NCBI GenBank assembly: GCA_017511715.1
Contig: JAFWJF010000007.1
Coordinates: 6,421-70,420, forward strand
DNA length: 64,000 nucleotides
Origin: Alphaproteobacteria bacterium
GTDB taxonomy: Bacteria; Pseudomonadota; Alphaproteobacteria; Rs-D84
Reading direction: 5' to 3'
Both the position numbers and the translations under genes were made by a program. This document shows positions 15,863 to 61,317 of the stretch, in pieces; the stretch's first letter is position 1, and each line of letters starts with the position of its first letter. Below the pieces are notes generated by a model. It saw only the letters and a program-made list of their open reading frames with translations, made no database searches and was not told the DNA's origin.

Positions 15863-15882
15863 TTGTTTTTCCTTTTGTTTTG

Positions 15883-16731
15883 TTATATTTGGAAGTCTGT
15901 ATTTGCACGAATCTGATTTAGAGTCCTGCCCTGTGGTCTTGCAGGAACAGGTGTCATAGAAACAGCACCTGCCAATGCATCCAAACCATCATCGTGTTCT
16001 TTGGAACCCATTGGTGTAAACGCCAACATTTCTGCCAACAGCATCGTTTGCTTTATTCTTTCGTGCATATAAAGATGACCTGTTGAAAGCAAAGGTTCCA
16101 AAGCGTTCAAAATTCTTGTTTCTTTTTTTATATGATTAGAAATTTGTATAATATTTATATTTCTTTGGTGTTTGCGCGCAATATCTCGCATAATTTCTGG
16201 CAACGCATTACCAATGCCATTTGTTTCAATACCTATTCTGAATAAATTGTGTTTCTGCATAAAATCAAGAACACTAATACATTGGTTTGTCAAAGGATGC
16301 ATATCTTCATCTTCAACCCCCATGTATATTATATCGTGCACAAAAACGTTTCTGTTTTTATCATCACGATAAACCAACACACAGACACTGCCATCATGAT
16401 TTTGGCGTCCTGTTGATGGGTCCCAATAACACGCCATACCTGTAATATTATTTTCACCGATTCGCGATGAAAACAAATCAAAATCATCAGAATAAAAATG
16501 AACCGCCCCAGGATCCAGTTGAACGCGTTCTTGGGCGACATATTCCAACATCATTTGTGCAGAAAAATGTCGCTGTCCAACAATATCTGCCAATTCATGT
16601 ATTTTTTCAATTGGAAACATTTCTGGCCATGCTGGGTTTCCCGCAGCGTCAATAATAGGTATTTTCAATTGCTTATACCCCTGTAAAAAAGGTATTGAAT
16701 TCTGAAAATTTTCGTTTAATCTAATAGACAT
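15883..16731 (-). CDS. Terminase large subunit, C-terminal nuclease half
   Basis: 282 aa with RNase-H-like terminase nuclease motifs (YWDPSTG, IETNG, HDDGLDALAGA). No ATPase motifs. Its ATG overlaps the dnaB ATG in a CATG tetranucleotide. Confidence 0.7.
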   Translation of the reverse strand: MSIRLNENFQNSIPFLQGYKQLKIPIIDAAGNPAWPEMFPIEKIHELADIVGQRHFSAQMMLEYVAQERVQLDPGAVHFYSDDFDLFSSRIGENNITGMACYWDPSTGRQNHDGSVCVLVYRDDKNRNVFVHDIIYMGVEDEDMHPLTNQCISVLDFMQKHNLFRIGIETNGIGNALPEIMRDIARKHQRNINIIQISNHIKKETRILNALEPLLSTGHLYMHERIKQTMLLAEMLAFTPMGSKEHDDGLDALAGAVSMTPVPARPQGRTLNQIRANTDFQI

Positions 16732-18280
16732 GGACTTTACTCCGAAAACTTTACCTACTAACCTAGAAGCCGAACAGGCCGTTTTGGCTGCGGTATTGAT
16801 GAATAACCGCGCACTGGAATCAGTATCTGATTTTTTGTTGCCGGAACATTTTTCGCATCCTGCACACCAAGAAATTTACAGACTGGCAATGCGTCAATTT
16901 GCCGTTGGAATTCCATTTGATATAATTACCGCCAAAACATACCTTGAACAGCAAGGCACTCTTGAAACCGTCGGTGGCGTTGAATATTTATCAAAATTGG
17001 CTTCTGCTGGCTCTACCGTGGTAAATGTTGAACATTACGGACACATTGTTTTTGATAATGCCCGCCGTCGTGATTTAATTCAGTTGGGACAAAGCATTAT
17101 TGATGATGCTTATACCGAAGATTTAGACAAAACAGTAAATGCACAGATAGAATCTGCGGAACAAAAACTGTTTAATCTTGCATCCACTGGACAAAGTGAA
17201 CACAACGTTGTATCTTTGGCGGACGCATTGAAAAGCGCATTACAAGAAGCCGAAATCGCATATAAAGCAGATGGAAAGTTATCTGGTCTTACAACCGGGT
17301 TGGACGATTTAGACAAATCAATAAGTGGCTTACATCATTCTGATTTAATCATTATTGCTGGTCGTCCTGGTATGGGAAAAACGACATTGGCAATGAACAT
17401 CGCATTTAATGCTGCAAACGCTATATTGAACGAACGCGCGAACGCACAATATAAAGGCGCGGTCGCATTTTTTAGTCTTGAAATGTCTTTTGCGCAATTG
17501 GCAACACGTGTGTTGTCTTCTCAATCAAAAATACCAGCGACACGCATGCGTGAGGGTAATTTGACAGATGAAGACTTTATGAAAATGTCACAATACAGTG
17601 AAGCACTGTCAAAAGTTCCTGTGGTCATTGATGACACGGCAAACATGTCTGTTGCGGCAATAAAAACACGTGCCCGCAGAATTGCCCGTAAATATGGCAA
17701 TATCGCATTGATTGTTATTGACTATTTACAGCTGATGACTTCACCTGGTGGCAAACACAACGACAATCGTGTTCAAGAATTATCAGAAATCACGCGTGGC
17801 TTGAAAATTTTAGCCAAGGAATTAGATGTTCCTGTTATCGCATTGTCTCAGTTATCACGAAGTGTCGAACAACGTGATGACAAACGCCCTGTATTATCAG
17901 ATTTGCGTGAATCTGGTTCTATTGAACAAGATGCGGATATTGTTATGTTTACATACCGCGAAGAATATTACCTTGAAGGACGTTCACCTGATAAAAAATT
18001 ATCCGGGACCGCATCTGAAACGTCCATGCAAAATTGGCAAAAACGCTTAGATAATGTTCGCAACAAAGCAGATGTTATCATCGCCAAGAACCGCCATGGT
18101 AAACCAGAAACTGTTCATTTAAGCTTTACCGGCGAATATTACCTGTTTGATAACCTTAATCAATTTGGTCCACAGCCAACACATGATTCTGAATTTGGAA
18201 ACCAATTCACAACAGCCACATCCGACACAAATATACCAAATGTTGCAGACATTAATGATATTCCTGACGATATGATTTAA
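16730..18280 (+). CDS. dnaB: Replicative DNA helicase DnaB
   Basis: 516 aa; N-terminal LEAEQAVLAAVL motif, Walker A GRPGMGKTT, RecA-like core, ~40 aa C-terminal extension. Confidence 0.92.
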   Translation: MDFTPKTLPTNLEAEQAVLAAVLMNNRALESVSDFLLPEHFSHPAHQEIYRLAMRQFAVGIPFDIITAKTYLEQQGTLETVGGVEYLSKLASAGSTVVNVEHYGHIVFDNARRRDLIQLGQSIIDDAYTEDLDKTVNAQIESAEQKLFNLASTGQSEHNVVSLADALKSALQEAEIAYKADGKLSGLTTGLDDLDKSISGLHHSDLIIIAGRPGMGKTTLAMNIAFNAANAILNERANAQYKGAVAFFSLEMSFAQLATRVLSSQSKIPATRMREGNLTDEDFMKMSQYSEALSKVPVVIDDTANMSVAAIKTRARRIARKYGNIALIVIDYLQLMTSPGGKHNDNRVQELSEITRGLKILAKELDVPVIALSQLSRSVEQRDDKRPVLSDLRESGSIEQDADIVMFTYREEYYLEGRSPDKKLSGTASETSMQNWQKRLDNVRNKADVIIAKNRHGKPETVHLSFTGEYYLFDNLNQFGPQPTHDSEFGNQFTTATSDTNIPNVADINDIPDDMI

Positions 18281-18305
18281 TTTTTACTTGCCAAAGTTTA
18301 GAAAA

Positions 18306-18340
18306 TTGACTAACATTTTGTCAACATATGTATATTCAGG
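18306..18340 (+). promoter_or_regulatory. Promoter with palindromic operator-like site (TTGAC-N9-GTCAA) upstream of XRE repressor gene
   Basis: -35 ttgact, -10 tatatt, RBS caggag. -35 lies inside inverted repeat ttgactaacattttgtcaa. Confidence 0.4.
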
Positions 18341-18348
18341 AGTCCACC

Positions 18349-19356
18349 ATGGCACAAGAAGAAATCATTTTTCCAAATAATATCCGTAACATTCGTGCAA
18401 GCAAAGGTATGAAAATGACAGAATTGGCACGCCGTGCAAATTTGTCATTGTCTGCTGTATCAAAGATTGAAAAAGGCGTTCGCCGTCTTAATCAAAAGCA
18501 GTTGTTAAATGTATGCACTATCTTGGGCTGTAAATTGTCGGATATATTTATTCACGAATCTGATTCTGTTGCACAAAATTGGCAAAACGAAATCAAACGT
18601 CGTTTAACAGACAACGAAGATAGCGGCTTGAAAATATTTGGTTCTGGTCTTCGCAAAATTCGCCAACGCACCGAAAAGACTATCGCCCAGGCCGCACACG
18701 ATGCAAAAATGACATTATCTGTGTATCATAAAATCGAAGTCGGTCAACGCGAAGTTTATGAAAACGAAATCGAAGTTTTGGCCCAGGCTTTTGGGTATAA
18801 AGCCTCTGAATTATTTGACGAAATCGCAAAACTTTACAAGGCTGGTGAATTAACAAAACAGATTAACAAAGTCAAAGAACGTGTCAAATCTGTTTTAGAG
18901 CCTGTAAATCCTATTTCTGGTCTTGACATTCATGGCGGTCTTTACGGCGCACAATTATATGATAATGCCCGCAAAAAATTAGTTCCTGTATTTGGCAAGC
19001 CTTCTGGTAAATCTATCAAATTGAAAAAATCTGATGAAACAATGATTGTGGCACCAACTACATTGGAAGGACACACTGGAATATATGCAGTTGTACCTAA
19101 TTCCAAAAGGTTAGGAGGTTTTGTTCCTGAATCTTCATATATTTTTGTAGACTCTAATTCAACACCAAAAGTTGGTGATTTGGCGGTCTGCATAAATGAA
19201 GATTTTGATAAATTGCCACTTGATGGTACGGCCGATGCCCAGGTTGTGGTTGTTCGTCAAGACAGCCATGGAAAAATGTTTGGTCACATATCTAACCCAG
19301 AAGAAAAGATTTCTGGTAAAACTTTTCACAAGGTTGTTATGATAGTGATGCAATAA
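18349..19356 (+). CDS. Tandem XRE-family HTH repressor with C-terminal S24/LexA-like (apparently non-catalytic) domain
   Basis: Two HTH_3-like segments (MTELARRANLSLSAVSKIEKG; TIAQAAHDAKMTLSVYHKIEVG). C-terminal beta-rich domain resembles S24 peptidase fold but lacks the GDSM serine motif. Confidence 0.65.
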   Translation: MAQEEIIFPNNIRNIRASKGMKMTELARRANLSLSAVSKIEKGVRRLNQKQLLNVCTILGCKLSDIFIHESDSVAQNWQNEIKRRLTDNEDSGLKIFGSGLRKIRQRTEKTIAQAAHDAKMTLSVYHKIEVGQREVYENEIEVLAQAFGYKASELFDEIAKLYKAGELTKQINKVKERVKSVLEPVNPISGLDIHGGLYGAQLYDNARKKLVPVFGKPSGKSIKLKKSDETMIVAPTTLEGHTGIYAVVPNSKRLGGFVPESSYIFVDSNSTPKVGDLAVCINEDFDKLPLDGTADAQVVVVRQDSHGKMFGHISNPEEKISGKTFHKVVMIVMQ

Positions 19357-19388
19357 GGCACTATCTCAAAACACAGGGGAGAGAGAAA

Positions 19389-20030
19389 ATGCAACAGCAA
19401 GCACACACAATCGCGCAACGTTTATTAAACCTTTACCGCCAGGCACATGTTATCGAAGGTGGCTGGGCAGCAGTTAATAAAGTTTTTATTGCAGAATCTA
19501 ATGATGCCCAAGTTATCACGGAACTGGAAAACCTGCCGACCGGCAAACGATTGGTTGCACACATTAATAACCTGCGCAGTGGTAAAACCCCTATGGATTC
19601 CATAGACAAAGATTTGCTGCCATATGGTGGTTTGATGTCTGGGGCGACAGGAAACGTTTCTTTAACCAAAGAAGAAATAAAACAGTTAAAACAAGCGCTA
19701 GATTCTTTTCAACCAACCACAGAAAGTCTGGATGTTATCAAAAACTTACCTTTCGTCAAAAAATTTGGTAACGATTGGGTTGATGACATAAGGTCTGCGA
19801 TTGCGTTTGATAATGATATGCTTACAAAATGGCGCACTGTTGCCCAAACAGACAAGGCATACAAAATCTGGAACAGCGCAAAAGAATTATTATCAGAAAC
19901 ATTGACAGAACGCAATCGTGCCCAAATTCAAGCAGACATGCTGGAATATGAAACTTATTTACCAATGTTTGGCGATGCAGGCAAAGAAGTTTTATCTAAA
20001 CTTCGTACATTTATGTCTTCGCTGTCATAG
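19389..20030 (+). CDS. Hypothetical protein (213 aa) in dnaB-repressor cassette
   Basis: RBS gggagag; no recognisable motifs. Confidence 0.35.
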   Translation: MQQQAHTIAQRLLNLYRQAHVIEGGWAAVNKVFIAESNDAQVITELENLPTGKRLVAHINNLRSGKTPMDSIDKDLLPYGGLMSGATGNVSLTKEEIKQLKQALDSFQPTTESLDVIKNLPFVKKFGNDWVDDIRSAIAFDNDMLTKWRTVAQTDKAYKIWNSAKELLSETLTERNRAQIQADMLEYETYLPMFGDAGKEVLSKLRTFMSSLS

Positions 20031-20031
20031 G

Positions 20032-20667
20032 CTATTCAATTTTGTATATTGTGTCTTGCGTGTGTGGGGTTCCTATGAAAATCATAGTTCCATTTGGCGA
20101 CAATATAAAATCTAGTTCGCGCAGTCTTTCCCGCAGGTTTATTCGTTTTTGCTGTGTATTGCAGGTATTCGGCACTTCTACGTCATCACATATAATCAAA
20201 TCAGAACGCATACCTGTTATATTGCCAGAAATTCCCTGACAAATAACGGATGGTTCTCTGATTCCGATTGGACGATTGATGGTTATTTTATGCGATCCCC
20301 ACTCTTTTTTTACATCCGGCACAATACCTTCACACCACGGGTGATTTTCAATGATATTTTTTATATGCGCCACCATGCGCGATGCCAACCCAGATTCCGC
20401 AGATAATATTAAAATTCTGGTTTCTGGTTTATGATACAATACACACGCAGCAAACACACCAACAACTGTTGATTTCCCAGAATGCCGAAACGCATTTAAC
20501 AGACCGCGATGTGGCGAATTGTTAAACACATCGACCAAAAAACTGAGTATTTGCCGGTGATGTTTTGGCGTTTGCAAACCCAAGACTTTATTCCATGCAT
20601 CTAAGAAATTAAATGCTTCCGTAATCGTCATTGTTTTCGCCATCTGCGTCTTCTGCCACAGAACCAT
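20032..20667 (-). CDS. Terminase large subunit, N-terminal ATPase half
   Basis: 211 aa with Walker A (RHSGKST), Walker B (LIICDDVE) and coupling motif (IFIGTP); ends with a stop, no nuclease domain. Confidence 0.7.
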   Translation of the reverse strand: MVLWQKTQMAKTMTITEAFNFLDAWNKVLGLQTPKHHRQILSFLVDVFNNSPHRGLLNAFRHSGKSTVVGVFAACVLYHKPETRILILSAESGLASRMVAHIKNIIENHPWCEGIVPDVKKEWGSHKITINRPIGIREPSVICQGISGNITGMRSDLIICDDVEVPNTCNTQQKRINLRERLRELDFILSPNGTMIFIGTPHTQDTIYKIE

Positions 20668-24077: not shown

Positions 24078-24902
24078 TTATTGGGCATCATCATCACATT
24101 TGATACGGACGATACCTTCGTTATCAATTAAAACTGCACCTTGGGACATGCTGTTGCTGATAAAGTGCGCCGCACGTTCACCATGCCATGTGATATCTGT
24201 TTTAACTTCTTGACCGCAGGCATGACCAATACTAGATGCATGGTACATAAAGCAATCACGATCATCGTCACTGATTGGTAATGAATTGCACAGAATCCAA
24301 TTCACACCCAACCATTTACGCGATTCGCAACCATCAACCAATGGTGTGGCATTTCCGACATAGTCAGCAGAAACAAATTCATCCAACGCCAACAATTCAT
24401 TCCATTGATGAACACCAACAATGGCAAATCTGCGACCATCATCAGGAACATCATTGGCATTAAGTTTTTCTAATGCTTCCATTATCAAAGCTTTTGTTAA
24501 ACCAGTTGAATAATCACCAACATATTGTGTTGCACTGTTCATAGCATTGATAATCAATTCATCTGTTTTGCGCCCCAACGCATATGCACCAGCAGACGCA
24601 ACAACACGACGTTCATCGACATTGGTTTTCAATTCATCCAACGAATCAACCCAATCACCTGCATAATAATCTTGCAAAACGCATTCAACAGGTGTGTGAT
24701 TCAGATTCATCACAGGAACAATCCCATGACGTGATTTTGTGCTGGCAATACCTTTGCCAACTTTTTGGAAAGTAGTAGATGCACCAACAACCCCGGTTTT
24801 ACTGCGGATTGTAGAGCGCAATTTTGTGCCCATTTGCTGATAAGCCAAATGAACATCTGCTTCAAATTGTTTTACAAACACTTGATCTACAGACATAGAC
24901 AT
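24078..24902 (-). CDS. Putative major capsid protein (274 aa)
   Basis: Position after scaffold-like gene, size compatible with small HK97-fold coat protein; no search performed. Confidence 0.4.
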   Translation of the reverse strand: MSMSVDQVFVKQFEADVHLAYQQMGTKLRSTIRSKTGVVGASTTFQKVGKGIASTKSRHGIVPVMNLNHTPVECVLQDYYAGDWVDSLDELKTNVDERRVVASAGAYALGRKTDELIINAMNSATQYVGDYSTGLTKALIMEALEKLNANDVPDDGRRFAIVGVHQWNELLALDEFVSADYVGNATPLVDGCESRKWLGVNWILCNSLPISDDDRDCFMYHASSIGHACGQEVKTDITWHGERAAHFISNSMSQGAVLIDNEGIVRIKCDDDAQ

Positions 24903-25145
24903 AAGTAATCCTTTTTGTTAAATCGAAACACGCCATGATGGCGTAATTTATAAAAATTTTGTTTTATGGTTATGCGATAATTCGCGCCACAAACACAAAA
25001 CAACACAAAAAAGGGTCCAAAAGAAATTGGATTATCCAATAAAAAATTCAGTCTGACTTTAACATCGGACTGAAAAATTTATCATCAAAAAAGTCCCCAA
25101 AACCAAGCGTTTTAGGGACTTTTATTAAAAGATTTTTTTACAATC

Positions 25146-25466
25146 TTATTTTTTCTTAACTACTTTTTTAGCAGCTGGTTTTTTTGCAGCAACTTTTTTT
25201 GCAGCTGGTTTTTTTGCAACTGCTTTTTTAGCAACTGGTTTTTTTGCAGCTGGTTTTTTTGCAACTACTTTTTTAGCAGCTGGTTTTTTTGCAACTACTT
25301 TTTTAGCAACTGGTTTTTTTGCAACTACTTTTTTAGCAGCTGGTTTTTTAACAGCAACTTTTTTTGCAGCTGGTTTTTTTGCAGCAACTTTTTTAGCAGG
25401 TGCTTTTTTTGCAGCTGGTTTAGCAGCTGGTTTTGCGCATGCGCATTTTTTCTTTAAGCCAAACAT
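25146..25466 (-). CDS. Histone H1-like Lys/Ala-rich DNA-binding protein (tandem AAKKPAAKKVV repeats)
   Basis: 106 aa, ~10 tandem KKPAAKKV(V/A) repeats encoded by 30-nt DNA tandem repeats; N-terminal KKKCACAK. Confidence 0.6.
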   Translation of the reverse strand: MFGLKKKCACAKPAAKPAAKKAPAKKVAAKKPAAKKVAVKKPAAKKVVAKKPVAKKVVAKKPAAKKVVAKKPAAKKPVAKKAVAKKPAAKKVAAKKPAAKKVVKKK

Positions 25467-25563: not shown

Positions 25564-26220
25564 TTATGAGTATAATTTTCTGAAACCATTTTCAATTTTT
25601 CTTATGTATTCAGGATCTTGGTCGCGCCAATATTTTGGATCACGCATCATGTTGCGCAACATGTCATCGGACAAATTTTCTGTTGCGTTTTTATCGGTCA
25701 AAACACTTGGTTCAAAAGATTGCATCATCTTATAAACGCCTTGTATTCCCTGGGGTGTAGCGCACAGTTCTTCAAATGCATCAGCAGGCAAATACTTTTC
25801 ACCAAATGCTTTTATTTCACGCAACGCATCGTTCATTTTTTCTGATGATCCAAAAAAATTTTTCAATTCATTTATTGCATTTGATTGATTTTGTAATGCA
25901 AATAAATTTTTTAATGTTGGTTGTAAAAATTCTTCTGCTATCGAATAAATTTTTTCAACTTGTTGTGATGTAAGACCAATTTCATGAAATTTTTCACGAA
26001 CCGATTCGTCATCAAATAAATCATTTACAGGATAATCAGACGCGTTATCTGGCACACCAATTGCATGATTAAATTTTTGTTTTGTGTCTGTATCACTGTC
26101 ATCTTTTGGAATCGAAATCATATTGCCCATCTTTTTTTCAAGTTCGCAATAAGACTTAACCAACGCAGAAGTATTTAATTCGCCGTTTTCATCAAGAAAC
26201 TTTTCAGGTATTTGTTCCAT
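25564..26220 (-). CDS. Scaffolding-like acidic helical protein (218 aa)
   Basis: Acidic, helix-rich, directly upstream of H1-like and capsid-like genes. Confidence 0.35.
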   Translation of the reverse strand: MEQIPEKFLDENGELNTSALVKSYCELEKKMGNMISIPKDDSDTDTKQKFNHAIGVPDNASDYPVNDLFDDESVREKFHEIGLTSQQVEKIYSIAEEFLQPTLKNLFALQNQSNAINELKNFFGSSEKMNDALREIKAFGEKYLPADAFEELCATPQGIQGVYKMMQSFEPSVLTDKNATENLSDDMLRNMMRDPKYWRDQDPEYIRKIENGFRKLYS

Positions 26221-32896: not shown

Positions 32897-32943
32897 AGTT
32901 TGTCTTAACAATAAAAAACACCGCCCAGATGGGCGGTGTTTTT

Positions 32944-33405
32944 TTATTTTTGTGGCAGGCTGTTTTGCACAGCAGAGCTAAAAAGGCCACTGCGCATCCT
33001 CGGTAGCGTCTGAACATAGTTTGAAGCACAAAATTGTGCGCAAGAGTTTGAACAAGTACTTACATGTCCTCTGCTATATCCATACACCCAAGCAGACAAA
33101 GCAGGATGTGTCATCCGACACCAACAATATTGACCGTTTGTTTCCCCACCAACAACCAATTCACCGTTATCATGCAGGTCTGCTGTTCCAGAACTCTGAT
33201 TAGTATTCAAACACGCCGAGCGACCATGAATTGTTCCGTATGGAAATATAACATGCCATGTCGCGTTTGGATTATCATAGTAAGAGCTAACGCCATCAAT
33301 AGACGGGTCCAGCACTATTGTTATTGTGTCGTTTTTGGAACACATTGTCGCGGCAGGCAATGCCATCGGTAATATCATCGCAATTATTATTATCAGTTTC
33401 TTCAT
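32944..33405 (-). CDS. Secreted cysteine-rich protein, paralog family member (153 aa)
   Basis: Signal peptide; C-terminal motif GxYCWCxM...W.YGY...CxxxCxxxCAS...R.G.FSSAVQ shared with 33533-33988 and 40241-41413. Confidence 0.5.
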   Translation of the reverse strand: MKKLIIIIAMILPMALPAATMCSKNDTITIVLDPSIDGVSSYYDNPNATWHVIFPYGTIHGRSACLNTNQSSGTADLHDNGELVVGGETNGQYCWCRMTHPALSAWVYGYSRGHVSTCSNSCAQFCASNYVQTLPRMRSGLFSSAVQNSLPQK

Positions 33406-33532
33406 CCTTCCTTTCCTTTTTGTTTTGTTTGTTTAGTTCCCAGACTTGCATCCTTTTGATTAGGGGTGGGCTGTATTAAAAAAAGAAAGTTTGTCGTTTT
33501 TCCACCCCTAATCAAAAGGACTTGCCGCCCTT

Positions 33533-33988
33533 TTACCACATCGATTCAAATACCGCTGTGCGAAATGTGTCATCGTCCTTCATCGCATCTGCGCAATCGG
33601 TCGTGCATGTCGATGCACACGCTGAATCTGTCGAATATGATTTAAGGTATATCCAATATGATGTCGGACCGCTTTCGTATCCATATGCTGGCACGGGCCA
33701 CATTTCACACCAACAATGTATCCCTACATCCTCCGCCCCTGTTACAAGGTTCGTCTTTGGCGTGTTTGCCACACCACTTATATCATTACACGATGCATAG
33801 CCCGTTAATGTCTGATCCGGAAACACCACTTTCCATGCTTTGTTTGTCGTATCCACCTGTTTCGATGTCCCGTCCACGTTCTTTCTGAATATCCCTATGT
33901 AACTGTTAGTTTTCACACAGGTCGTAAATCCATACGCAGACATACCTGTCGTTATTATTGTTATTATTATCAATATTGCCTTTCTCAT
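33533..33988 (-). CDS. Secreted cysteine-rich protein, paralog family member (151 aa)
   Basis: Signal peptide; HCWCEMWPVPAYGY ... CASTCTTDCAD ... FRTAVFESMW. Confidence 0.5.
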   Translation of the reverse strand: MRKAILIIITIITTGMSAYGFTTCVKTNSYIGIFRKNVDGTSKQVDTTNKAWKVVFPDQTLTGYASCNDISGVANTPKTNLVTGAEDVGIHCWCEMWPVPAYGYESGPTSYWIYLKSYSTDSACASTCTTDCADAMKDDDTFRTAVFESMW

Positions 33989-33996
33989 ATCCCCCC

Positions 33997-34767
33997 CTAT
34001 TTAATTAGATGTAAATCGTTATCACCGTATCGAACCCACACACTCGTTTCGTCCGTTGGTTCGTCCGTCAAATTCCCATAACATACACCATTGTTATACC
34101 CAACATTTAATGATGGTTGTGTCTGTGCGCTTGACCACAATGGAACAATAACGCCGTTGCTGGTCCGAAATGTCGTTATACCCAACCCACACAAAGTTGC
34201 ACATGTCCCCGCATTAGTCGTTAATTGTCCATCTTCACAAAAACTTACACATGTCGAAGCTGTCAAATCATATCCACATGAATCTTGTGCAATATATTGG
34301 CTGTATCCGGTCGCACACGAACCGTTTTTAGGCGCAAATGATGCAGAACCCGCCGCAACACCATAATAACCAGTCGGACAATTTGTCGTCCCATATGTCG
34401 TACATGTCGTATTGTCCGGCGAATAACCATTATCACAAAGTAATATTTCACTGCCAACAATTGCCCCATTATGTATTACCGCCACTGTTGTATCTGGTAA
34501 TGTTCGTGGTTCGTATCCACTAATATCGCACAAATCTTCAGATGGTGTCGTTATCATAAACGATTCCGAAGATGGCGTTATATCATGATATCCCGAATCA
34601 CAATTACCAATGCCGTATGTCGTACATGTCGTATTGTCCGGTGAATAACCATTATCACAGAGTAATACTTCACTGCCAACAATTTGCGCAGCAAAAAGCG
34701 CGCTTGTAAAAAACAAGCAACAAATGTTTATTCTTAAAATTCGCAAAAAATAGCTACCTTTGCTCAT
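33997..34767 (-). CDS. Secreted cysteine-rich protein with internal duplication (256 aa)
   Basis: Signal peptide; duplicated IVGSE(V/I)LLCDNGYSPDNTTCTTYG module; first gene of operon behind conserved leader. Confidence 0.5.
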   Translation of the reverse strand: MSKGSYFLRILRINICCLFFTSALFAAQIVGSEVLLCDNGYSPDNTTCTTYGIGNCDSGYHDITPSSESFMITTPSEDLCDISGYEPRTLPDTTVAVIHNGAIVGSEILLCDNGYSPDNTTCTTYGTTNCPTGYYGVAAGSASFAPKNGSCATGYSQYIAQDSCGYDLTASTCVSFCEDGQLTTNAGTCATLCGLGITTFRTSNGVIVPLWSSAQTQPSLNVGYNNGVCYGNLTDEPTDETSVWVRYGDNDLHLIK

Positions 34768-34895
34768 CTTTATTCCGCCCTAAAAACCACCAAATGTTTT
34801 AGGTGGTTGGAGGTTAGTAGCTATAAAAACAGTATAGTGCGCTTATTTATATATATCCGCGCCCTCCAACCTATTCCATGGTTGGAGGCGTTTAT
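34768..34895 (-). promoter_or_regulatory. Conserved structured 5' leader (copy X): hairpin CCUCCAACC/GGUUGGAGG, second CCUCCAACC, terminator-like hairpin + U-run
   Basis: Minus-strand hairpin 34861-34890. Second aaccuccaacc at ~34805-34815 overlaps stem ccacc-uaaaacauuu-ggugg + UUUUU (34782-34806), 15 nt before ATG. Same architecture upstream of 40241. Confidence 0.5.
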
Positions 34896-35088
34896 CGTCC
34901 GCTTTCGACGCTGTTTTCCAATGGCTACTACACCACATCAACAGAACACCTGTTGACACAGCTAGCGTAGCAAAAATATTATGAATCTTTCAAGAGTTTT
35001 TTTTACAAGTATGTTTTCATATTATTTGTGTGTATATCAAAGGCATTAAATTTAACCCATCCGCACACCACAAAATTAATCTTTAATA

Positions 35089-37284
35089 CTACACAAAACT
35101 TTGTGGGTTGACATCAATTTTTACACGAACATTTGTCGGTTGTTTTACTTTGTCCAACCACGCACGAACTATCGGTTGCAGATTCGCACGCGCATTACCA
35201 GACACCAAAAATCGCATACGATACCAATTTCTTATTTGATATATTTGTGCCGCGATTGGACCCATTATTTTACCGCCATTTAATGTCGGCGCTGCATGCG
35301 ATAATTCGGCGCAATATTTTTTAAGTGTTGATTCTTTGTCTGCTTCCACTATGACGGCTATCAGTTGTCCAAAAGGTGGCATTTGTGCCATGCGTCTTGA
35401 TTCCATATCAGATGCCATAAATTCGTCCCTGTCACCTGCACAAATCGCACGAATAACAGGATGTTCTGGTTGAAATGTTTGCAATAATACGCGTCCTGGG
35501 AATTCGCCACGCCCGGCGCGCCCCGCAACCTGAAACAGTTGTTGAAAAGTATGTTCCCCGGCGCGAAAATCTGTACCAAACAACCCCATATCTGCATCAA
35601 CGACACCAACCAAAGTCAAATTTGGGAAATGATGACCCTTGGCTAAAATTTGTGTTCCGATAATTATATCTATTTCGCCGTTTTCCATTTTGTGAACAAG
35701 GCGTTCCAACGCTTCGCGCGACATAATTGTATCACTGGACACCAGTGCAATACGCGCCTTTGGAAATTTTGACGCAACTTCTTCTTCTATTTTTTCCAGA
35801 CCTGCCCCACGCATTGAAACACTGTTTTTGCATTGCGGACAAACTGTCGGCAGATTTTCCATCCGCCCACACATATGACAAACCAGTTTGTTTATATGCT
35901 TATGATAATTATACGAAGTGGAACAATCAGGACAACCCGCAACCCAACCACATTTTTTACACTGAACAATCGGTGCAAACCCACGGCGGTTTATAAACAA
36001 CATCACCTGTTTATGATTTGCCAATGTGTCTGTGATTTCAGAACATAATTGCGGCGAAAGATTTCCAGATTTTTCTTCTTCTTCGACTTTATAAGAATCT
36101 GGACGATTAGCGCGCATATCGATTGTTTCTATGGTTGGCATTTGCGCACCGCCAAATCGCGAAGTCAATCGCAACCTGTTGTATTTCCCCAGCGCAACAT
36201 TATGCAAAGTTTCAACAGACGGTGTCGCAGATACCAACACTATTGGGAAACCCGCAATCTTTGCACGTAATATCGCCATGTCGCGTGCATGATAATTCCC
36301 CATGTCTTCTTGCTTATACGAAGTATCATGTTCTTCATCAACAACTATCAATCCTAAATTTTGCCACGGCAGAAATAACGCACTGCGCGTACCAACAACT
36401 ATGCGAATATCACCACGCGCAACCCCACGCCAAATATCACGCCGGCGCGCTGATGTCAAATTACTGTGCCAGACAACAGGTGGTGCACCGAAACGTTTTG
36501 TAAACCTGTCCATGAATTGTGCAGTTAATGCGATTTCTGGCATCATTAACAAAACCGATTTTCCAGCATTATATGCACGCAACACAGAATCAAAGTAAAC
36601 CTGAGTCTTGCCAGAACCTGTTATTCCGTCTAACAAATGCACAGAAAAATTGTTCGCGCTTATTGCGGTTGCTATTGTGTCTGCTGCCGCGCGCTGTTCG
36701 TCGTTCAATGTCACAGAACCTGTATCAAAATACTTATACTGGAAACGAGTATCTTTTATTTCACGCACATGAACAGGTGTTAAAACCGCGTTCTTTATCA
36801 TTGTTTTAACAACAGCACCGCTGACATGTGCAATATTTATGATATCGTTCACAGACATTGCTTCGTTATCATTAGAAGAAAAAGCATCTGCCACACTTTG
36901 ACGCGCATCTGTCATTTTAACCTTGGTATCAAAATTGAAATTGTATAACTGTTCTATTTTCGGGGCAGAAAAAGCATCCGGGACATTAAGAATCAATCGC
37001 AAAACCGCCCCTGGCGCCATAAGTGTCCAATCTGACATTTTATATATCCAATCTATGTCAGACGGCGACATTTTCCCCAATTTACAGATTTCAATAACAG
37101 ACTTTATCTTTGATTCTTCCAATCCACTGTCACCCGGACCAACGATTACACCAACATATTGCCGGTTCATGACCGTCACACGTGCAAACGCGCCGATTTC
37201 TGCACTTTCATTTAAACGATAATCATAGCCCCGATTGATAACATTGGGGACAAGAACTTTCACAATATCGCCAGGTTGAAACAT
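35089..37284 (-). CDS. priA: Primosomal protein N' (replication restart helicase)
   Basis: 731 aa, Walker A GITGSGKT, DEEH box, Cys-rich zinc-binding insertion (CxxC x4). Confidence 0.92.
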   Translation of the reverse strand: MFQPGDIVKVLVPNVINRGYDYRLNESAEIGAFARVTVMNRQYVGVIVGPGDSGLEESKIKSVIEICKLGKMSPSDIDWIYKMSDWTLMAPGAVLRLILNVPDAFSAPKIEQLYNFNFDTKVKMTDARQSVADAFSSNDNEAMSVNDIINIAHVSGAVVKTMIKNAVLTPVHVREIKDTRFQYKYFDTGSVTLNDEQRAAADTIATAISANNFSVHLLDGITGSGKTQVYFDSVLRAYNAGKSVLLMMPEIALTAQFMDRFTKRFGAPPVVWHSNLTSARRRDIWRGVARGDIRIVVGTRSALFLPWQNLGLIVVDEEHDTSYKQEDMGNYHARDMAILRAKIAGFPIVLVSATPSVETLHNVALGKYNRLRLTSRFGGAQMPTIETIDMRANRPDSYKVEEEEKSGNLSPQLCSEITDTLANHKQVMLFINRRGFAPIVQCKKCGWVAGCPDCSTSYNYHKHINKLVCHMCGRMENLPTVCPQCKNSVSMRGAGLEKIEEEVASKFPKARIALVSSDTIMSREALERLVHKMENGEIDIIIGTQILAKGHHFPNLTLVGVVDADMGLFGTDFRAGEHTFQQLFQVAGRAGRGEFPGRVLLQTFQPEHPVIRAICAGDRDEFMASDMESRRMAQMPPFGQLIAVIVEADKESTLKKYCAELSHAAPTLNGGKIMGPIAAQIYQIRNWYRMRFLVSGNARANLQPIVRAWLDKVKQPTNVRVKIDVNPQSFV

Positions 37285-37397
37285 GTTATTAAATTAGCTG
37301 TTTTTTTTATTTTTTTCAACAGACAAATAAAAATGTTGACAATTCGCGTTTTTGTATTATATTAACATTAAATAAAACCTAAACAAAGGAAAACCAA

Positions 37398-37928
37398 ATG
37401 GCAAAATCTAAACAACTTAAACAAAAACGCGCAATGCAGGTTGCGGAAGCAGAAGCTCAATTTGAAGCATACAAAGATTTTATTGTCAAAGAATTCATTG
37501 AAAAATTCGGCGGTTCTTATCAAACAGCCGAAAACATGAAAGACATTTGGCGCGACAGTTTTGTTTTTCGCCCAGAATGCGAACAATTTCTGATATCAAA
37601 AACAAAATTATTTATAAACCTGATGGGCGATTGCCATACCAGCGCAAGTCCTTGTTTTTTAAGAGTTATTACCGGCAGAATCAGCGAATACTTGGCGCGC
37701 TATATATGCAAAAAAGGCATATCCCGTAATGATTGCGTCAATCAGTTAAGAGATATCTTCTTTGTGAACAATCATCACGTAGGCCACGAAATAAGACGTT
37801 ATAAATCTGAAGAGAAAAAAGCCTATGCCATGAAATGTAGAGCAAAAAAACAAGCCGCACAAAAGGCAGCAAAAAAACAAGAACAATTGTTGCAAATACA
37901 AATTTTTGTTAATGAAAGCGTAAGATAA
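37398..37928 (+). CDS. Hypothetical protein (176 aa)
   Basis: Promoter ttgaca-17-tatatt upstream; Lys-rich termini; no family recognised. Confidence 0.35.
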   Translation: MAKSKQLKQKRAMQVAEAEAQFEAYKDFIVKEFIEKFGGSYQTAENMKDIWRDSFVFRPECEQFLISKTKLFINLMGDCHTSASPCFLRVITGRISEYLARYICKKGISRNDCVNQLRDIFFVNNHHVGHEIRRYKSEEKKAYAMKCRAKKQAAQKAAKKQEQLLQIQIFVNESVR

Positions 37929-37930
37929 AA

Positions 37931-38827
37931 TTATAATTGTTCAATTACACGTTCCAAATCTTTGTCGTTTGGAACGTTTTTTATTTCAATATCTGCGTTG
38001 TATTGCCCGTTAAACCAAGTACGTTGACGTTTTGCATATTGATTTGTTTTTGTTGTCCAATTTTCAATTGCTTCATTTTCTGAAATTTTTCCACGCAACA
38101 TATCACAAATTTGCACTGCACCAATCGCACGCGATGAATCAAGGTTATTTTTTATTATATTTGCACCCTCTTCCAGTGCACCACCTTTTATCATTTCAGG
38201 AATTCGCGATGCAATTCGTTTTAACAAATCTGCGCGTTCCGGCATAATCAAGACCCGCAGTGCATCAGGCACCACCGCACAATCACGTGGTTTTTTTTGC
38301 CAATCTGTTATATGTTTTCCCGTTTCAAGAAAAACTTCCAACGCCCGTGCAATTCTTTGTGGGTCTGTCGCGACAAATTCGGTTGGCAACATTTTTTTTG
38401 CACTTTCAATATCTTCTGCAACCATTTCGCGCGCTTTATTACGATTCGATTCGCAAACTTCTGGAATTTGCGAAATACCGTTTATAAGAACATTTATGTA
38501 ATATCCTGTCCCGCCAACAAAGATTGGCACTTTGCCCATCGCAACGACTTCATCAAATGCCTGTTTTGCCAATGCTAAATAATCTGCCACGCTGATATGT
38601 TCATTCAGCGAAAGAATTGAAAACAGTTTATATGGCACACCATCTATTTCATCAAACCTGCCAGAAATTTCCGCGAACGGTGATGCGGATATATTTTCAA
38701 TTCCACGATATATTTGCACACTGTCCGCGTTTATGATTGCACCATTGATACGCTTTGCCAGTTTATGTGCAAATTCAGATTTCCCCGATGCAGTCGGTCC
38801 TGCGATAATAATTGCGTTGTGTTTCAT
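37931..38827 (-). CDS. miaA: tRNA dimethylallyltransferase
   Basis: Start MKHNAIIIAGPTASGKS (P-loop); table ORF extends upstream with alternative start; 298 aa typical MiaA length. Confidence 0.88.
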   Translation of the reverse strand: MKHNAIIIAGPTASGKSEFAHKLAKRINGAIINADSVQIYRGIENISASPFAEISGRFDEIDGVPYKLFSILSLNEHISVADYLALAKQAFDEVVAMGKVPIFVGGTGYYINVLINGISQIPEVCESNRNKAREMVAEDIESAKKMLPTEFVATDPQRIARALEVFLETGKHITDWQKKPRDCAVVPDALRVLIMPERADLLKRIASRIPEMIKGGALEEGANIIKNNLDSSRAIGAVQICDMLRGKISENEAIENWTTKTNQYAKRQRTWFNGQYNADIEIKNVPNDKDLERVIEQL

Positions 38828-38946
38828 GGAACTATTATAAAATCGCGAATTTGGCTTTGCAAGGGAAGCCCCGAAAAAAATCCCGCTGTGTTTTTTTGCC
38901 TTTTTGTGATAGAATAGACGCATAGAAAAAAGAAAAAGGATAAAGG

Positions 38947-39945
38947 ATGAAAAAAATTCGTGTTGCAATAAATGGTTTTGGGCGCATTGGGCGTCTGGTA
39001 TTGCGTGCCGCATTGGAATCAGGTCGCAAAGATATTGAATTTGTCGCAGTTAATGATTTGGCCCCAGCGGACGAAAATGCATACTTGCTGGAATATGATT
39101 CCGTTCATGGTAAATTACCAGTGGATGTAAAGTTAGATGGCGAATATATTTTGGTTGGCGGACAAAAGATAAAATGTTTATCTGAACGCGACCCATCTAA
39201 ACTGCCATGGAAACAATTAAAGATAGATATTGTTATGGAATGCACGGGGCTGTTTACATCTGCGGATAAAGCACGCGTTCATTTGGACAACGGCGCAAGG
39301 CGCGTTTTGGTTTCTGCCCCATCGGCCGGCGCAGACAAGACAATCGTCTTTGGTGTTAACGAAAACAAATTGACCAAGAAAGATTTAATCGTATCAAATG
39401 CATCTTGCACAACAAATTGTTTGGCACCGGTATTAAATGTGCTGGATAAAAAATTCGGCATTATAAATGGATGGATGACAACTGTGCATGCATACACAGG
39501 CGACCAGCAACTTTTAGATAAAAACCACAAAGATTTCAGACGTGCACGTGCGGCAAACCTTTCGATGATTCCAACCAGCACCGGTGCCGCAAAGGCAATT
39601 GGTCTGGTATTGCCAAAATTATCCGGCAAAATGGATGGTATCGCAATTCGCGTTCCAACCCCAGATGTTTCTGTTGTTGAATTGGCGTTAAATGTGAACA
39701 AACGCGCAACGATTGATTCTGTGAATAAAGTAATGAAATCTGCTGAATCTGAAATATTGGGATACAATGATAAACCACTTGTTTCGATAGATTTCACAAA
39801 TGATAAACACAGTTCGATTTTTGATGCATCACAAACACGTGTAATTGATGAACATTTAATACACGTGACCGCGTGGTACGATAACGAATGGGGCTTTTCT
39901 AACCGTATGTGTGATACAGCCGTTGCGATTGGTAAAACTTTATAA
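38947..39945 (+). CDS. gap: Glyceraldehyde-3-phosphate dehydrogenase
   Basis: NGFGRIGR NAD motif, active-site SCTTNCLAP. Confidence 0.95.
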   Translation: MKKIRVAINGFGRIGRLVLRAALESGRKDIEFVAVNDLAPADENAYLLEYDSVHGKLPVDVKLDGEYILVGGQKIKCLSERDPSKLPWKQLKIDIVMECTGLFTSADKARVHLDNGARRVLVSAPSAGADKTIVFGVNENKLTKKDLIVSNASCTTNCLAPVLNVLDKKFGIINGWMTTVHAYTGDQQLLDKNHKDFRRARAANLSMIPTSTGAAKAIGLVLPKLSGKMDGIAIRVPTPDVSVVELALNVNKRATIDSVNKVMKSAESEILGYNDKPLVSIDFTNDKHSSIFDASQTRVIDEHLIHVTAWYDNEWGFSNRMCDTAVAIGKTL

Positions 39946-39953
39946 AATAAAAA

Positions 39954-39978
39954 TACCGCCAATACGGCGGTTTTTTTT
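39954..39978 (+). terminator. Intrinsic terminator after gap
   Basis: Hairpin accgccaatacggcggt + T8. Confidence 0.6.
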
Positions 39979-40013
39979 ATTTGTATTTCAAGTGATTTTT
40001 TTGTATAATCTAT

Positions 40014-40240
40014 ACATCGGCGAATAAATATTTGCTGATGGGGTGTAACGACCCTTTACAAATAGGCGTCTTGTTGAATTAAAGCAAGATGAAAAATGCT
40101 CCAACCACATTGGGTTGGAGGGTCGCAAAATATATCGAATATGCGCACAATTTCCTATTTGAATTGTCGTTAACCTCCAACCGCCTGAATTTCATGCGGT
40201 TTATTTGTTTATAAACAAAAAAGGAACAAAAGGAAACAAT
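40014..40240 (+). promoter_or_regulatory. Conserved structured 5' leader (copy Y) with promoter TTGTAT-17-TGTATAAT upstream
   Basis: Hairpin cuccaacc-acauug-gguuggag (~40099-40120). Second aaccuccaacc (~40172-40182) overlaps hairpin ccgcc-ugaauuucau-gcgg + U-rich (~40181-40212). ATG at 40241. Confidence 0.5.
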
Positions 40241-41413
40241 ATGAAATCGAAAATAATAATGACCTCTATGGTCGGCTTGGCGTTTGCGATGCCGGCATTC
40301 GCGGCGCCAAGCAATTCTTCCAACACATTTCCGTCAAACGGACAAATGCAGGAAGACACTAAATACATAGGTCAGGCAACACAAGCAAACCTGCACTCAT
40401 ACGAAGGACCGGTGACGGCAACCGCAAATTATACCGATACGCCATATACCGTGACGGCGGGTAATTATTTGCCAATGTCATCGGAAACAGTTGCACAATG
40501 TACCAGCGGTAATTATTGTCCGGGAATAAACGGCACAGTAAATTACAGCACGTCAGCGAATCAAGGTTTAACCGCATGTCCAAATGGATATCCAAATTCA
40601 TTGGCTGGCGCAACATCGGATACAGAATGTTATACGGCATGCACGGTTGCAAATGCGGGAATCGCCAACGCAAGCGCAGTATCCGGTAATGATTATTATG
40701 GCACAGGCACCGACACTTGTTATCCAACAGAATGCGTTGCCGGTTGGCATCTTAACCCCGGCGCACCAGATTTAACAACGATAATCGGCGAATCGGCATC
40801 AACAGGGTATGGATATCAAAATAACAGTGCCACAGCCCCTGATGGTGAAAACCAAAATACATACGGCATTACCCAAAATAATGAATTTGTGGTTGATTAT
40901 GGCAACAAAGGAAAAATCCACGGATATGCAAGATGTAGTACGCGTTCTGCAACCGACCCATGGGTGGGTCCAGATGAATATGAATTACAATCAGACAATA
41001 TAACCAGCACATTACCAGATAGCACGGGTCAATATTGTTATTGTCAACTTGATGGCTATACACCGAATGGTCAATCAATGCAAAGCGTGTCTGCCCCTTG
41101 GGTGTTCGAAGTCGACTTAGGTTCTTTGTCGCTGGATTGTGCGTCGAACTGCGCGCGCAACTGTGCGTCCGATCTGCGGTCCAACTTCACGTTCCGTACC
41201 GCGGTGTTTAACGCCGTTGCGGCAGCAGGCGCACCATCATGTGATGCGAATGTTATTTCTATCACATGGGATGGTGCGGATGCGGCGGACGTTGCGGCGA
41301 ATGATGCAGGACAATGTACATATGGTGGCGATATCAATACACCGAAAAAGGCTGTGCATGTTCCCGGAAAGACGTTTGTCGGTTGGACATTCGACACACC
41401 AAGTGGAAACTAA
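40241..41413 (+). CDS. Secreted cysteine-rich protein, paralog family member with C-terminal Listeria-Bacteroides-repeat-like module (390 aa)
   Basis: Signal peptide MKSKIIMTSMVGLAFAMPAFA; shared motif QYCYCQLDG...SAPWVFEV...CASNCARNCAS...FTFRTAVFN; C-terminal ISITWDG...GKTFVGWTF. Confidence 0.55.
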   Translation: MKSKIIMTSMVGLAFAMPAFAAPSNSSNTFPSNGQMQEDTKYIGQATQANLHSYEGPVTATANYTDTPYTVTAGNYLPMSSETVAQCTSGNYCPGINGTVNYSTSANQGLTACPNGYPNSLAGATSDTECYTACTVANAGIANASAVSGNDYYGTGTDTCYPTECVAGWHLNPGAPDLTTIIGESASTGYGYQNNSATAPDGENQNTYGITQNNEFVVDYGNKGKIHGYARCSTRSATDPWVGPDEYELQSDNITSTLPDSTGQYCYCQLDGYTPNGQSMQSVSAPWVFEVDLGSLSLDCASNCARNCASDLRSNFTFRTAVFNAVAAAGAPSCDANVISITWDGADAADVAANDAGQCTYGGDINTPKKAVHVPGKTFVGWTFDTPSGN

Positions 41414-51751: not shown

Positions 51752-51822
51752 GTTTACAAACCAAAGAGATAATTGCATACCCTGCAATTCACGAGCTGAT
51801 TTTCTGTATGATTTGTTGTTGT
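51752..51822. repeat. ~70 bp direct repeat, copy 1
   Basis: ctgcaattcacgagctgattttctgtatgatttgttgttgtttgggaaagaaattaaggtgtttttgg; near-identical copy at ~53636-53706. Confidence 0.7.
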
Positions 51823-55565: not shown

Positions 55566-55640
55566 TGGCAGCCCCACTCGGATTTGAACCGGGATTCTCG
55601 CCTTGAAAGGGCGGTGTCCTAACCATTAGACGATGGGGCC
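55566..55640 (-). tRNA. tRNA-Glu (anticodon TTC)
   Basis: GGCCCCATCGTCTAATGGTTAGGAC... with anticodon loop CTTTCAA; resembles canonical bacterial tRNA-Glu; CCA encoded. Confidence 0.85.
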
Positions 55641-55682
55641 AAGGACTCTTATAAACCGCCGTTTTATCGGCGGTAAAATCTC

Positions 55683-55760
55683 TGGCGGGATGTAAGGGGC
55701 TCGAACCCTCGACCTTCTGCGTGACAGGCAGACGCTCTAAACCAGCTGAGCTAACACCCC
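55683..55760 (-). tRNA. tRNA-Asp (anticodon GTC)
   Basis: Acceptor GGGGTGT/ACATCCC, anticodon loop CTGTCAC, T-loop TTCGAGC, CCA encoded. Confidence 0.85.
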
Positions 55761-55980
55761 AGAGCAACGCTTATATTATAACACCCGTGCACAAAAAGCA
55801 AGCATTTTTTTCACAAATTGACAACAAGTAAAAAATATCTTACAATATGATCATGAAAAAGATAATATTTTTGATTTGCATGGTTTTGTTGTGCGCTGTT
55901 GTTCTGGGTGGATGTGGGGTGAAATCAGAATTAGCGCATGATACTGATTATCCACGCAATTATCCGGTATATTAAAATCT

Positions 55981-56065
<85 letters not shown>

Positions 56066-61094: not shown

Positions 61095-61317
61095 GACACA
61101 AAGACAACTGTTTTTCCCCAGTTTTCTTCGCCCTGCACGCACCGTCCATCGATTATTTTGACGCGTCGCACTATTTTGTTATCGCGATTGTAGCACAAAA
61201 ACTTTTCAACGGTCAAGTTATAACAGAGAATAAAAAAGCTGTATTTTAATAAAAAAAACTTGATTTTAAGTAAAATATTATCTACAATGCGCCAAGTGAA
61301 TAAAAAAGGCGATAAAA

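Follow-up and report, generated by a model that had tools for sequence, protein, structure and literature searches.

A secreted cysteine-rich domain family of gut Alphaproteobacteria includes the variable protein of diversity-generating retroelements

A 64,000-nucleotide (nt) stretch of DNA from an Alphaproteobacteria bacterium of the Rs-D84 lineage (contig JAFWJF010000007.1 of assembly GCA_017511715.1, positions 6,421 to 70,420), which is referred to below as the window, contains four genes for secreted, cysteine-rich proteins, called A, B, C and D here (Table 1). An earlier note on this DNA had described A, B and D as a paralogous family with a common cysteine-patterned motif. We found that in related gut bacteria the counterpart of gene A encodes the variable protein of a diversity-generating retroelement (DGR), and that the motif coincides with the part of the gene which is rewritten by the retroelement. 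The reading that one undescribed domain is present in A, in B and in the centre of D, that the A-type protein is a DGR variable protein, and that A of the window itself is a trans target or an orphaned target of such an element is, taken as a whole, probable in our judgement.

The A-type gene in related genomes

The signature of the retroelement was first apparent in a 108-kb contig with an orthologue of B (locus L001), where counterparts of C, B and A (C′, B′ and A′) follow each other in the order of the window and are succeeded by a gene with an RVT_1 domain. The cassette of this locus consists of A′, a template repeat (TR), an open reading frame (ORF) of 108 amino acids (aa), called p108 here, and the RVT_1 reverse transcriptase (RT). 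The last 132 nt of A′ are copied downstream with 13 differences, 12 of which are located at adenines of the downstream copy, that is, of the TR. A difference between repeats that falls almost wholly on adenines is diagnostic for the TR and the variable repeat (VR) of a DGR. The RT of this locus contains the sequence IGNLTSQ, a form of the IGxxxSQ motif that is known from the literature for the RVT_1 domains of DGR-type RTs.

Among 69 genome loci and L001, an RT and a p108 ORF were located about 1 kb from an A-type gene at 13 loci, and 12 loci had intact cognate TR/VR pairs of 130–141 nt. The comparison of these pairs showed that 142 of 154 mismatches were at TR adenines (12/13, 16/18, 11/11, 13/14, 12/12, 9/9, 13/13, 12/12, 8/8, 13/13, 10/14 and 13/17 in the individual loci), with adenines making up only about one-fifth of the TR bases. 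The translated TRs read W[VA]F-NN-x-N-...-C-A-x-N-C-x-NN-C-G-NN-x-x-NN-...-R-x-G-[LV]-F-G-S-V, and the VRs depart from them at the N (AAY) codons. The VR of the relatives (W.F .. Cx3Cx3C .. R.GLF) coincides with the motif of the earlier note (W.YGY ... Cx3Cx3C ... FRTAVF), which explains both the conserved cysteine scaffold and the variable positions between the cysteines: the conserved letters of the motif are the scaffold that is not encoded by adenines, and the intervening positions are the programmed variable ones.

The variability of the proteins themselves follows the same pattern. In an alignment of 30 A orthologues the hypervariability was in the VR register, with a mean column entropy of 1.55 bits in the VR versus 0.76 upstream of it. 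B, which is kept immediately upstream of A in related genomes, is not hypervariable, as the corresponding values for its orthologues were 0.99 and 0.90, with no excess at the C terminus. B was also considered as a second DGR target, and this was rejected, because it had neither a TR match nor extra C-terminal variability.

In some of the relatives the retroelement reaches beyond its own locus. Remote VRs on other contigs were found in three genomes: five in a horse-faeces metagenome-assembled genome (MAG), where between 13/16 and 15/15 of the mismatches were at adenines, one in RUG12675 (13/13), and two in the Enterousia MAG JAZURV (14/18 and 15/20). A single TR serves as many as six VRs, which are located on different contigs. 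Of the two remote targets in JAZURV, one is D-like and 312 aa long; its N terminus resembles that of D of the window, its Flg_new-like module is central, and the VR-bearing domain comes last. A GGGCTTGTTCGGGTCGGTCGC block at the 3′ end of the VR is conserved among the active DGR loci, and several of them have hairpins with 4-nt loops downstream. These data show that the A-type gene is the DGR variable protein in related Candidatus Enterousia / Rs-D84 gut MAGs. In a literature search no publication tying DGRs to Rs-D84 was found, and the Enterousia genome paper makes no mention of DGRs (PMC12306168).

Two further observations concern the build and the setting of the cassette. The sequence 5′ of the A gene recurs just upstream of the TR in several DGR loci, with 88–93% identity and without adenine bias (9782–9944/10662–10826 in L019, 9705–9971/10510–10784 in L024 and 9360–9448/10575–10661 in L010), and the template may be transcribed from a copy of the 5′ region of the target gene itself. 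In L001 the cassette is followed by phage-like genes (14800–20456; SleB-type hydrolase, T7 capsid/scaffold-like, Phage_capsid_2 and Tube), while in L004 and L019 it is located in a conserved chromosomal slot between PriA and T2SSE, which suggests that the cassette moves between contexts.

Domain family, predicted fold and accessory protein

The homology between the window proteins extends well beyond the motif. A and B are homologous along their entire length (BLASTP E=6e-17, 31% identity), and the central part of D was matched by A at E=1e-5 and by B at E=3e-8. When a hidden Markov model (HMM) of the family was run on the six-frame translation of the window, it detected A (3e-49), B (1e-45) and D (3e-23), and no other ORF. 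Hence, the homology of A, B and D that had been proposed holds, while the homologous unit is the entire mature domain of about 130 aa and not a C-terminal tail of about 70 residues, and in D this domain is internal rather than terminal. In the numbering of A, cysteines 22, 65, 94, 96, 118, 122 and 126 show little or no variation, and D retains the last six of them.

The earlier note could not match the motif to a known domain, and our searches agree with it: A, B, C and D had no match in Pfam and NCBIfam, and the family profile had no matches at E<=10 among all PDB sequences. The expanding secreted family that it proposed proved real and large. A HMMER search over 1.84 billion cluster representatives returned 1,494 proteins at E<=1e-3, of which 439 reached E<=1e-10. 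These were either single-domain proteins of about 150 aa, or giants that can be as long as 6,218 aa and contain as many as seven copies of the domain. The giant proteins bear Listeria-Bacteroides (Flg_new) repeats, as exemplified by P0037 with an Flg_new score of 358 bits. All named homologues were annotated as 'hypothetical protein' and came from Alphaproteobacteria MAGs. In a scan of species-representative genomes all 69 loci belonged to Candidatus Enterousia or to unnamed gut or rumen Alphaproteobacteria, and the family often had four to nine copies per genome, often at contig ends. The best match to A of the window among these genomes was at 55%, while the GenBank MAG protein IKF41_02905 was 100% identical to it. 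Candidatus Enterousia and the order Rs-D84 have genomes smaller than 1 Mb and a partner-dependent metabolism (PMC12306168).

The A/B/D domain is thus an undescribed, extracytoplasmic and probably disulfide-rich domain family of about 130 aa. Its signal peptides, its fusion to Flg_new surface repeats and its targeting by DGRs suggest a ligand-binding module at the cell surface of these reduced-genome gut Alphaproteobacteria. A role in host interaction or as an adhesin accessory had been suggested before; a surface or ligand-binding role fits the Flg_new fusions, while the link between the motif and DGRs had been missed. Anchoring of the single-domain members as lipoproteins was examined as well, since nearly all of them have a cysteine directly after the signal peptide. 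The canonical lipobox, which would read [LVI][ASTVI][GAS]C where the signal peptide ends, was not found: in 86 of 95 proteins the residue at position –1 was M, T, I, V or L, and it was never G, A or S. Lipoprotein anchoring was therefore rejected.

A model of mature A, obtained with AlphaFold2 from an alignment of 54 sequences, had a mean predicted local distance difference test (pLDDT) score of 86.4 and a predicted template modelling (pTM) score of 0.80. In the predicted fold seven strands precede two helices, which span mature residues 97–113 and 117–131, and the VR corresponds to the last strand and both helices of the model. The pattern of the first helix, C-A-x-x-C-A-x-x-C-G-x-x, has a period of four, which is consistent with a helix. 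At 100 degrees per residue the three cysteines and the small A and G residues would share one half of the helix, with the variable residues located on the opposite half. The natural reading would be that three disulfides connect the helix cysteines to the sheet cysteines C65, C94 and C96. Modelling had been proposed as a check for a disulfide-rich fold; the fold is predicted with confidence, and the disulfides are putative.

The DGR variable proteins whose structures have been solved or modelled with confidence reportedly all have the C-type lectin (CLec) fold. Annotated VR regions are systematically of this fold according to the largest survey (PMC8144416), and targets once called immunoglobulin-like were reassigned to CLec with a hypermutated beta-hairpin (PMC10743442). 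For the A domain, similarity to C-type lectins or to the formylglycine-generating enzyme (FGE)-sulfatase fold was found neither with Pfam and NCBIfam nor with the PDB profile search or Foldseek, and its VR is predicted to be helical. The Foldseek search of the A model against PDB gave no match (best E=0.5, template modelling score 0.25), as did the search against a viral structure library. The solved DGR variable proteins are in PDB. The domain thus probably does not have the CLec fold on the present evidence, in which case it would be a new DGR scaffold.

The accessory ORF of these loci, p108, adjoins the DGR RT in the 13 loci (11652–11978 in L001), is strongly conserved, with a mean column identity of 70–75%, and has 354 homologues, all unnamed, while Pfam and NCBIfam gave no match. 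Its model is a barrel of the oligonucleotide/oligosaccharide-binding (OB) type with a pLDDT of 85.9, and the best Foldseek matches were weak yet consistently OB folds (HIN-200, the OB domain of RuvBL2, RPA and SSB; E=0.04–0.5). Homologues of p108 were also found beside an RT in all 38 viral loci from IMG/VR (L081–L118), none of which had an A domain. Four classes of DGR accessory proteins have been described, which are Avd, HRDC, MSL and CH1 (PMC5758913), and p108, with its predicted OB fold, does not fit any of them.

The window locus and its neighbouring genes

The window has the gene order of the DGR loci. The nearest species-representative relative, JAZURV, shares 87% identity with it in PriA, 96% in T2SSE and 93% in GAPDH, and the order of its locus (L004) is GAPDH-MiaA-p176-PriA-C-B-[TR]-p108-A-RT-p135-T2SSE-p179-FKBP-LpxI. 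Two other loci, L008 and L019, are equivalent to it, but have the central part arranged as C-B-A-TR-p108-RT. In the window this order was found on the opposite strand, where B is separated from A by only 127 nt and A from p135 by 48 nt. The matching gene order with such short gaps indicates that the window locus is orthologous to the DGR loci and that the DGR core is absent from it. We propose that the 141 nt of A which correspond to the VR are, or recently were, a hypervariable region written by a retroelement.

Table 1. Positions of the family genes, of their parts and of the associated RNA elements in the window
Feature	Position	Strand	Description
A	32944–33405	minus	153 aa, secreted, single domain, A-type subfamily; orthologous, in syntenic position, to the DGR variable protein in the relatives (BLASTP, HMM, synteny with L004, L008 and L019)
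VR-equivalent of A	32965–33105	minus	residues 101–147, PALSAWVYGYSRGHVSTCSNSCAQFCASNYVQTLPRMRSGLFSSAVQ; counterpart of the 130–141-nt VR in DGR-linked orthologues
Hairpin, 14 bp, T-runs on either side	32913–32944		between A and the convergent gene of 135 aa (p135); bidirectional terminator, 4-nt loop
B	33533–33988	minus	151 aa, secreted, single-domain paralogue, B-type; C-terminal end FRTAVFESMW
C	33997–34767	minus	256 aa, secreted, Cys-rich; first gene in the C-B-A unit
Modules of C			two, about 74 aa each, both opening with near-identical IVGSE(V/I)LLCDNGYSPDNTTCTTYG
Leader RNA, copy 1	34782–34957	minus	upstream of C; P1 hairpin, long-range helix, invariant hairpin, terminal hairpin and U-run
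Invariant leader hairpin	34864–34887	minus	CCUCCAACC-loop-GGUUGGAGG
Leader RNA, copy 2	40017–40209	plus	upstream of D; hairpin at 40099–40120
D	40241–41413	plus	390 aa, secreted; N-terminal Cys-rich region, then A/B-like domain, then C-terminal Flg_new-like module
A/B-like domain of D	about 40841–41221	plus	B-like, six conserved Cys, ...DCASNCARNCAS...FRTAVF (HMM E=3e-23, profile positions 38–144)
Flg_new (Listeria-Bacteroides) repeat, sub-threshold	41303–41395	plus	C terminus of D; 14.8 bits, E=0.032

Several observations weigh against the overall reading given at the outset. With the L001 sequences as queries (tblastn and blastn), no RT, p108 or TR was found in the window, nor were RT, RVT_1, p108 or TR found in the 10 kb beyond each of its ends on the 174-kb source contig; the stretch examined for the DGR core was 83 kb of this contig, which is about one-tenth of a genome of about 0.9 Mb. 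A search for a second copy of the VR-like segments of A, B and D (blastn, word size 7) gave only self-matches in the window and 20 kb of flanks. The VR-equivalent has 45% GC versus 56–71% in the DGR-linked VRs, its 3′ end is GGCCTTTTTAGCTCTGCTGTGC, with the GC-rich block of the active loci lost, and A, which contains an indel of one codon, departs from the consensus in its scaffold. When compared to the nearest strain alleles, A of the window shows differences, including indels, along most of the gene body, which looks like allele replacement or recombination and not like adenine mutagenesis. Additionally, the fold and the disulfide pattern come from a single AlphaFold model, and the binding function is deduced from the domain context.

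The strain-level alleles of this locus give a more detailed picture. Four alleles were available (L072/L073, L074, L075 and the window), in which the flanks are 97–100% identical and the A gene is strongly diverged. They have in common an invariant 3′ block, which starts exactly at the end of the VR variation; this block is AT-richer and diverged, yet invariant among the strain alleles, and is followed by the terminator hairpin with the 4-nt loop. Between L072 and L075, the VR-equivalent has 12 differences in 105 nt, the remaining part of A has 13 in 369 nt and the flanks have 10 in 1,050 nt, and all nine changed VR codons are nonsynonymous (Fisher p=0.005). The VRs of L072 and L075 are also low in GC, which means that low GC is no proof of inactivity. 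On the other hand, the divergence and the indels of the window allele are too extensive for it to have come from the same template as the other alleles.

These data are consistent with A of the window being either a recently orphaned target or a trans target of a DGR located elsewhere, with roughly even chances for the two. The first possibility, which we place just short of an even chance, is that the lineage of the window lost its DGR, and that the orphaned A has since evolved by point mutation and recombination, the motif being an inherited scaffold. This would explain the empty syntenic slot and the lack of RT, TR and p108 within 83 kb, and also the low GC of the VR-equivalent, the decay of the block resembling an initiation-of-mutagenic-homing element at its end, the altered scaffold positions with the indel, and the mosaic differences of A from close strains. 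It is less easily reconciled with the changes between L072 and L075, which are focused on the VR and all nonsynonymous despite the low GC, and with the use of remote targets by relatives; the horse-faeces MAG has a PriA-A-T2SSE copy without an adjacent RT, which is a genuine remote VR in the syntenic position. The examined stretch is also only a small part of the genome.

The second possibility, that a DGR elsewhere in the genome still uses A as a remote VR and diversifies it, perhaps along with other family members, appears somewhat short of even. It is in agreement with the use of one template for as many as six VRs, on different contigs, in relatives, with the concentration of the L072/L075 variation in the VR, and with the start of the invariant 3′ block where the variation stops. 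Many A-type MAG matches are at contig ends, as would be expected of repeated or variable sequence. The absence of template and RT from the 83 kb speaks against it, and so does the number of non-adenine differences between the window allele and its sister alleles, which is too large for one template. A pattern search of public metagenome contigs for the lineage-specific VR 3′ block, which gave five matches, all unrelated, also bears against it. No p108 homologue with the locus prefix IKF41 was present among the 120 matches listed, few of which were named, so that this result says little.

Both possibilities presuppose a retroelement. A third explanation would do without it, by taking A, B and D for ordinary secreted effectors, toxins or bacteriocin-like cysteine-rich peptides, whose motif is a disulfide knot. 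The small size, secretion, seven cysteines, lack of a known domain and expansion of the family would suit such proteins. However, DGRs target the same domain at no fewer than 12 related loci, and its repetition within giant Flg_new surface proteins fits a binding module better than a diffusible toxin, which makes this explanation very unlikely. That the similarity arose by chance or from cysteine-rich low-complexity composition has next to no probability; for A, B and D it is refuted by E-values from 6e-17 to 3e-49, by hundreds of homologues with invariant columns and by the confident structure model, even though the matches of C to D and to B are indeed at chance level.

The remaining features of the four genes follow the earlier description in part. 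All four ORFs are located where they had been placed, and inspection of their N termini by eye showed the features of signal peptides, namely an n-region with K or R, a hydrophobic core and an A-x-A-like site. The proposed operon behind a leader is also borne out: C, B and A are co-directional, with only 8 nt between C and B, and the unit ends with the hairpin and T-run after A. The partial C-terminal match of C to the family did not withstand analysis, as BLASTP gave E=0.15–0.6 and the family HMM found no match in C at E<=10. C was thus ruled out as a distant family member, and is a conserved operon partner of the family genes rather than a detectable member. Its internal duplication, which had been called exact, is present and near-exact (34609–34686 versus 34387–34464, 23 of 25 aa, 88% nt identity over 78 nt). 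The number of C modules varies, with two in the window protein and three in the 338-aa protein of L001 (8925–9941).

The Listeria-Bacteroides module that had been assigned to D is plausible, because family members elsewhere have strong Flg_new matches, although it was detected in residues 27–57 of the 62-aa tail with a score well below the Pfam gathering threshold of 27 bits, and a whole-protein Pfam scan of D gave no Flg_new match. A further D-like member of 392 aa is encoded on the source contig about 7 kb past the window start (L121, 19170–20348; HMM E=7.5e-15), and part of the DNA of its gene matches D of the window.

The leader of about 180 nt is common to the upstream regions of C and D, and to family genes in at least 10 related loci (L003, L014, L018, L019, L026, L034, L044, L055, L062, L072 and L073). 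Its hairpin motif occurs twice in the window, while zero occurrences are expected. The RNAalifold analysis of 12 leader copies gave 35 base pairs, 14 of them with compensatory changes, and an alternative pairing of GGUUGGAGG with a second CCUCCAACC is possible. The comparison with Rfam returned nothing at the gathering threshold and nothing at E<=1. The terminal hairpin resembles a terminator, and the leader would be an undescribed cis-acting RNA and is a riboswitch-like candidate. Since the same structured leader precedes both, the C-B-A unit and D are probably co-regulated through it.

Other repeats were noticed elsewhere in the window. A 1,642-aa surface protein (56214–61142, minus strand) has internal repeats about 1.06–1.11 kb apart and 87-nt repeats, and contains Flg_new (30.3 bits), BspA-type LRR_5 and ephrin-receptor-like cysteine repeats; its strain variant in L120 runs into a contig end. 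This giant protein was considered as a carrier of the domain and was ruled out, as the family HMM found no A/B/D domain in it. A tandem array with a 15-nt period (25090–25451; 16 registered copies of a 137-nt reference, 64–84% identity) is located between the ORFs at 24078–24902 and 25564–26220, and direct repeats at 51783–51853/53636–53706 (71 nt, 92%) and 56049–56093/56163–56207 (45 nt, 98%) lie near a tRNA cluster at 55569–56062.

Proposed mechanism and relation to known systems

In the mechanism that we propose from the relatives, the RT with its 108-aa accessory protein would copy the TR with misincorporation at adenines, and the mutated copy would replace the last 44 or so codons of the A gene, by which about a dozen AAY-coded positions would be randomised. 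The W.F, Cx3Cx3C and R.GLF scaffold, which is not encoded by adenines, would stay fixed between the mutated sites, which would explain why the paralogues share the motif. The three cysteines and the small residues of the helix would face inward, with the variable residues on the exposed face. B is an invariant paralogue and C a cysteine-rich partner, both co-transcribed with A in this reading, and the two may act together with it, while D is a multidomain relative.

Taken to its full extent, the proposal would be that of a new, non-CLec DGR scaffold, in which a helix stapled to a beta-sheet by three cysteines displays about a dozen adenine-encoded residues, an OB-fold accessory takes the place of Avd, several surface proteins are diversified in trans, and a riboswitch-like leader is involved. 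This combination of features is tentative, and we would give it a little less than an even chance. If it is true, a second, unrelated scaffold would mean that DGRs are not tied to one fold, and it would provide a small (about 130 aa), disulfide-stabilised helix-display module for protein engineering. The data also point to programmed surface variation in Candidatus Enterousia / Rs-D84, which are abundant animal-gut bacteria, and they make the A/B/D family a candidate set of attachment proteins in the search for the partner of these bacteria.

Among known systems, the Listeria-Bacteroides (Flg_new / InlB B-repeat) proteins resemble the present family in that its domain is fused to Flg_new in many members, D ends with an Flg_new-like module, and the 1,642-aa protein of the window likewise contains Flg_new. 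They differ from it because Flg_new and the A/B/D domain are distinct, because A and B carry no domain besides the latter, and because the module of D is below the Pfam threshold.

The closest resemblance is to the CLec targets of DGRs, such as Mtd of the Bordetella phage BPP-1, TvpA of Treponema denticola and LdtA of Legionella. Those are likewise secreted or surface proteins with a C-terminal VR of about 130–140 nt, which has a partner TR and departs from it almost exclusively at TR adenines, and they likewise have AAY codons at variable sites with an invariant scaffold between them. In Treponema one TR also serves several remote targets (PMC5758913). In contrast to them, the A domain has neither a PDB sequence match nor a Foldseek match in PDB, and while CLec targets display a beta-hairpin or loop (PMC8144416; PMC10743442), the A-type VR is predicted to form a strand and two helices with Cx3Cx3C. 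The accessory protein of the Enterousia loci, of 108 aa and with a predicted OB fold, also differs from the known Avd, HRDC, MSL and CH1 proteins (PMC5758913), and the window, in contrast to the CLec systems, is without RT or TR.

The setting of these DGRs is also not without parallel. DGRs were reportedly described by Paul and colleagues in 2017 from candidate phyla radiation (CPR) bacteria and DPANN archaea, which have reduced genomes and depend on partners. The programmed surface variation suggested here parallels them in the small genomes of the hosts (<1 Mb in the present case, PMC12306168), their limited metabolism, the chromosomal location of the DGR, and its several secreted or surface targets, and differs from them in the host clade, which here is the Rs-D84 lineage of Alphaproteobacteria from animal guts, and in the scaffold of the target.

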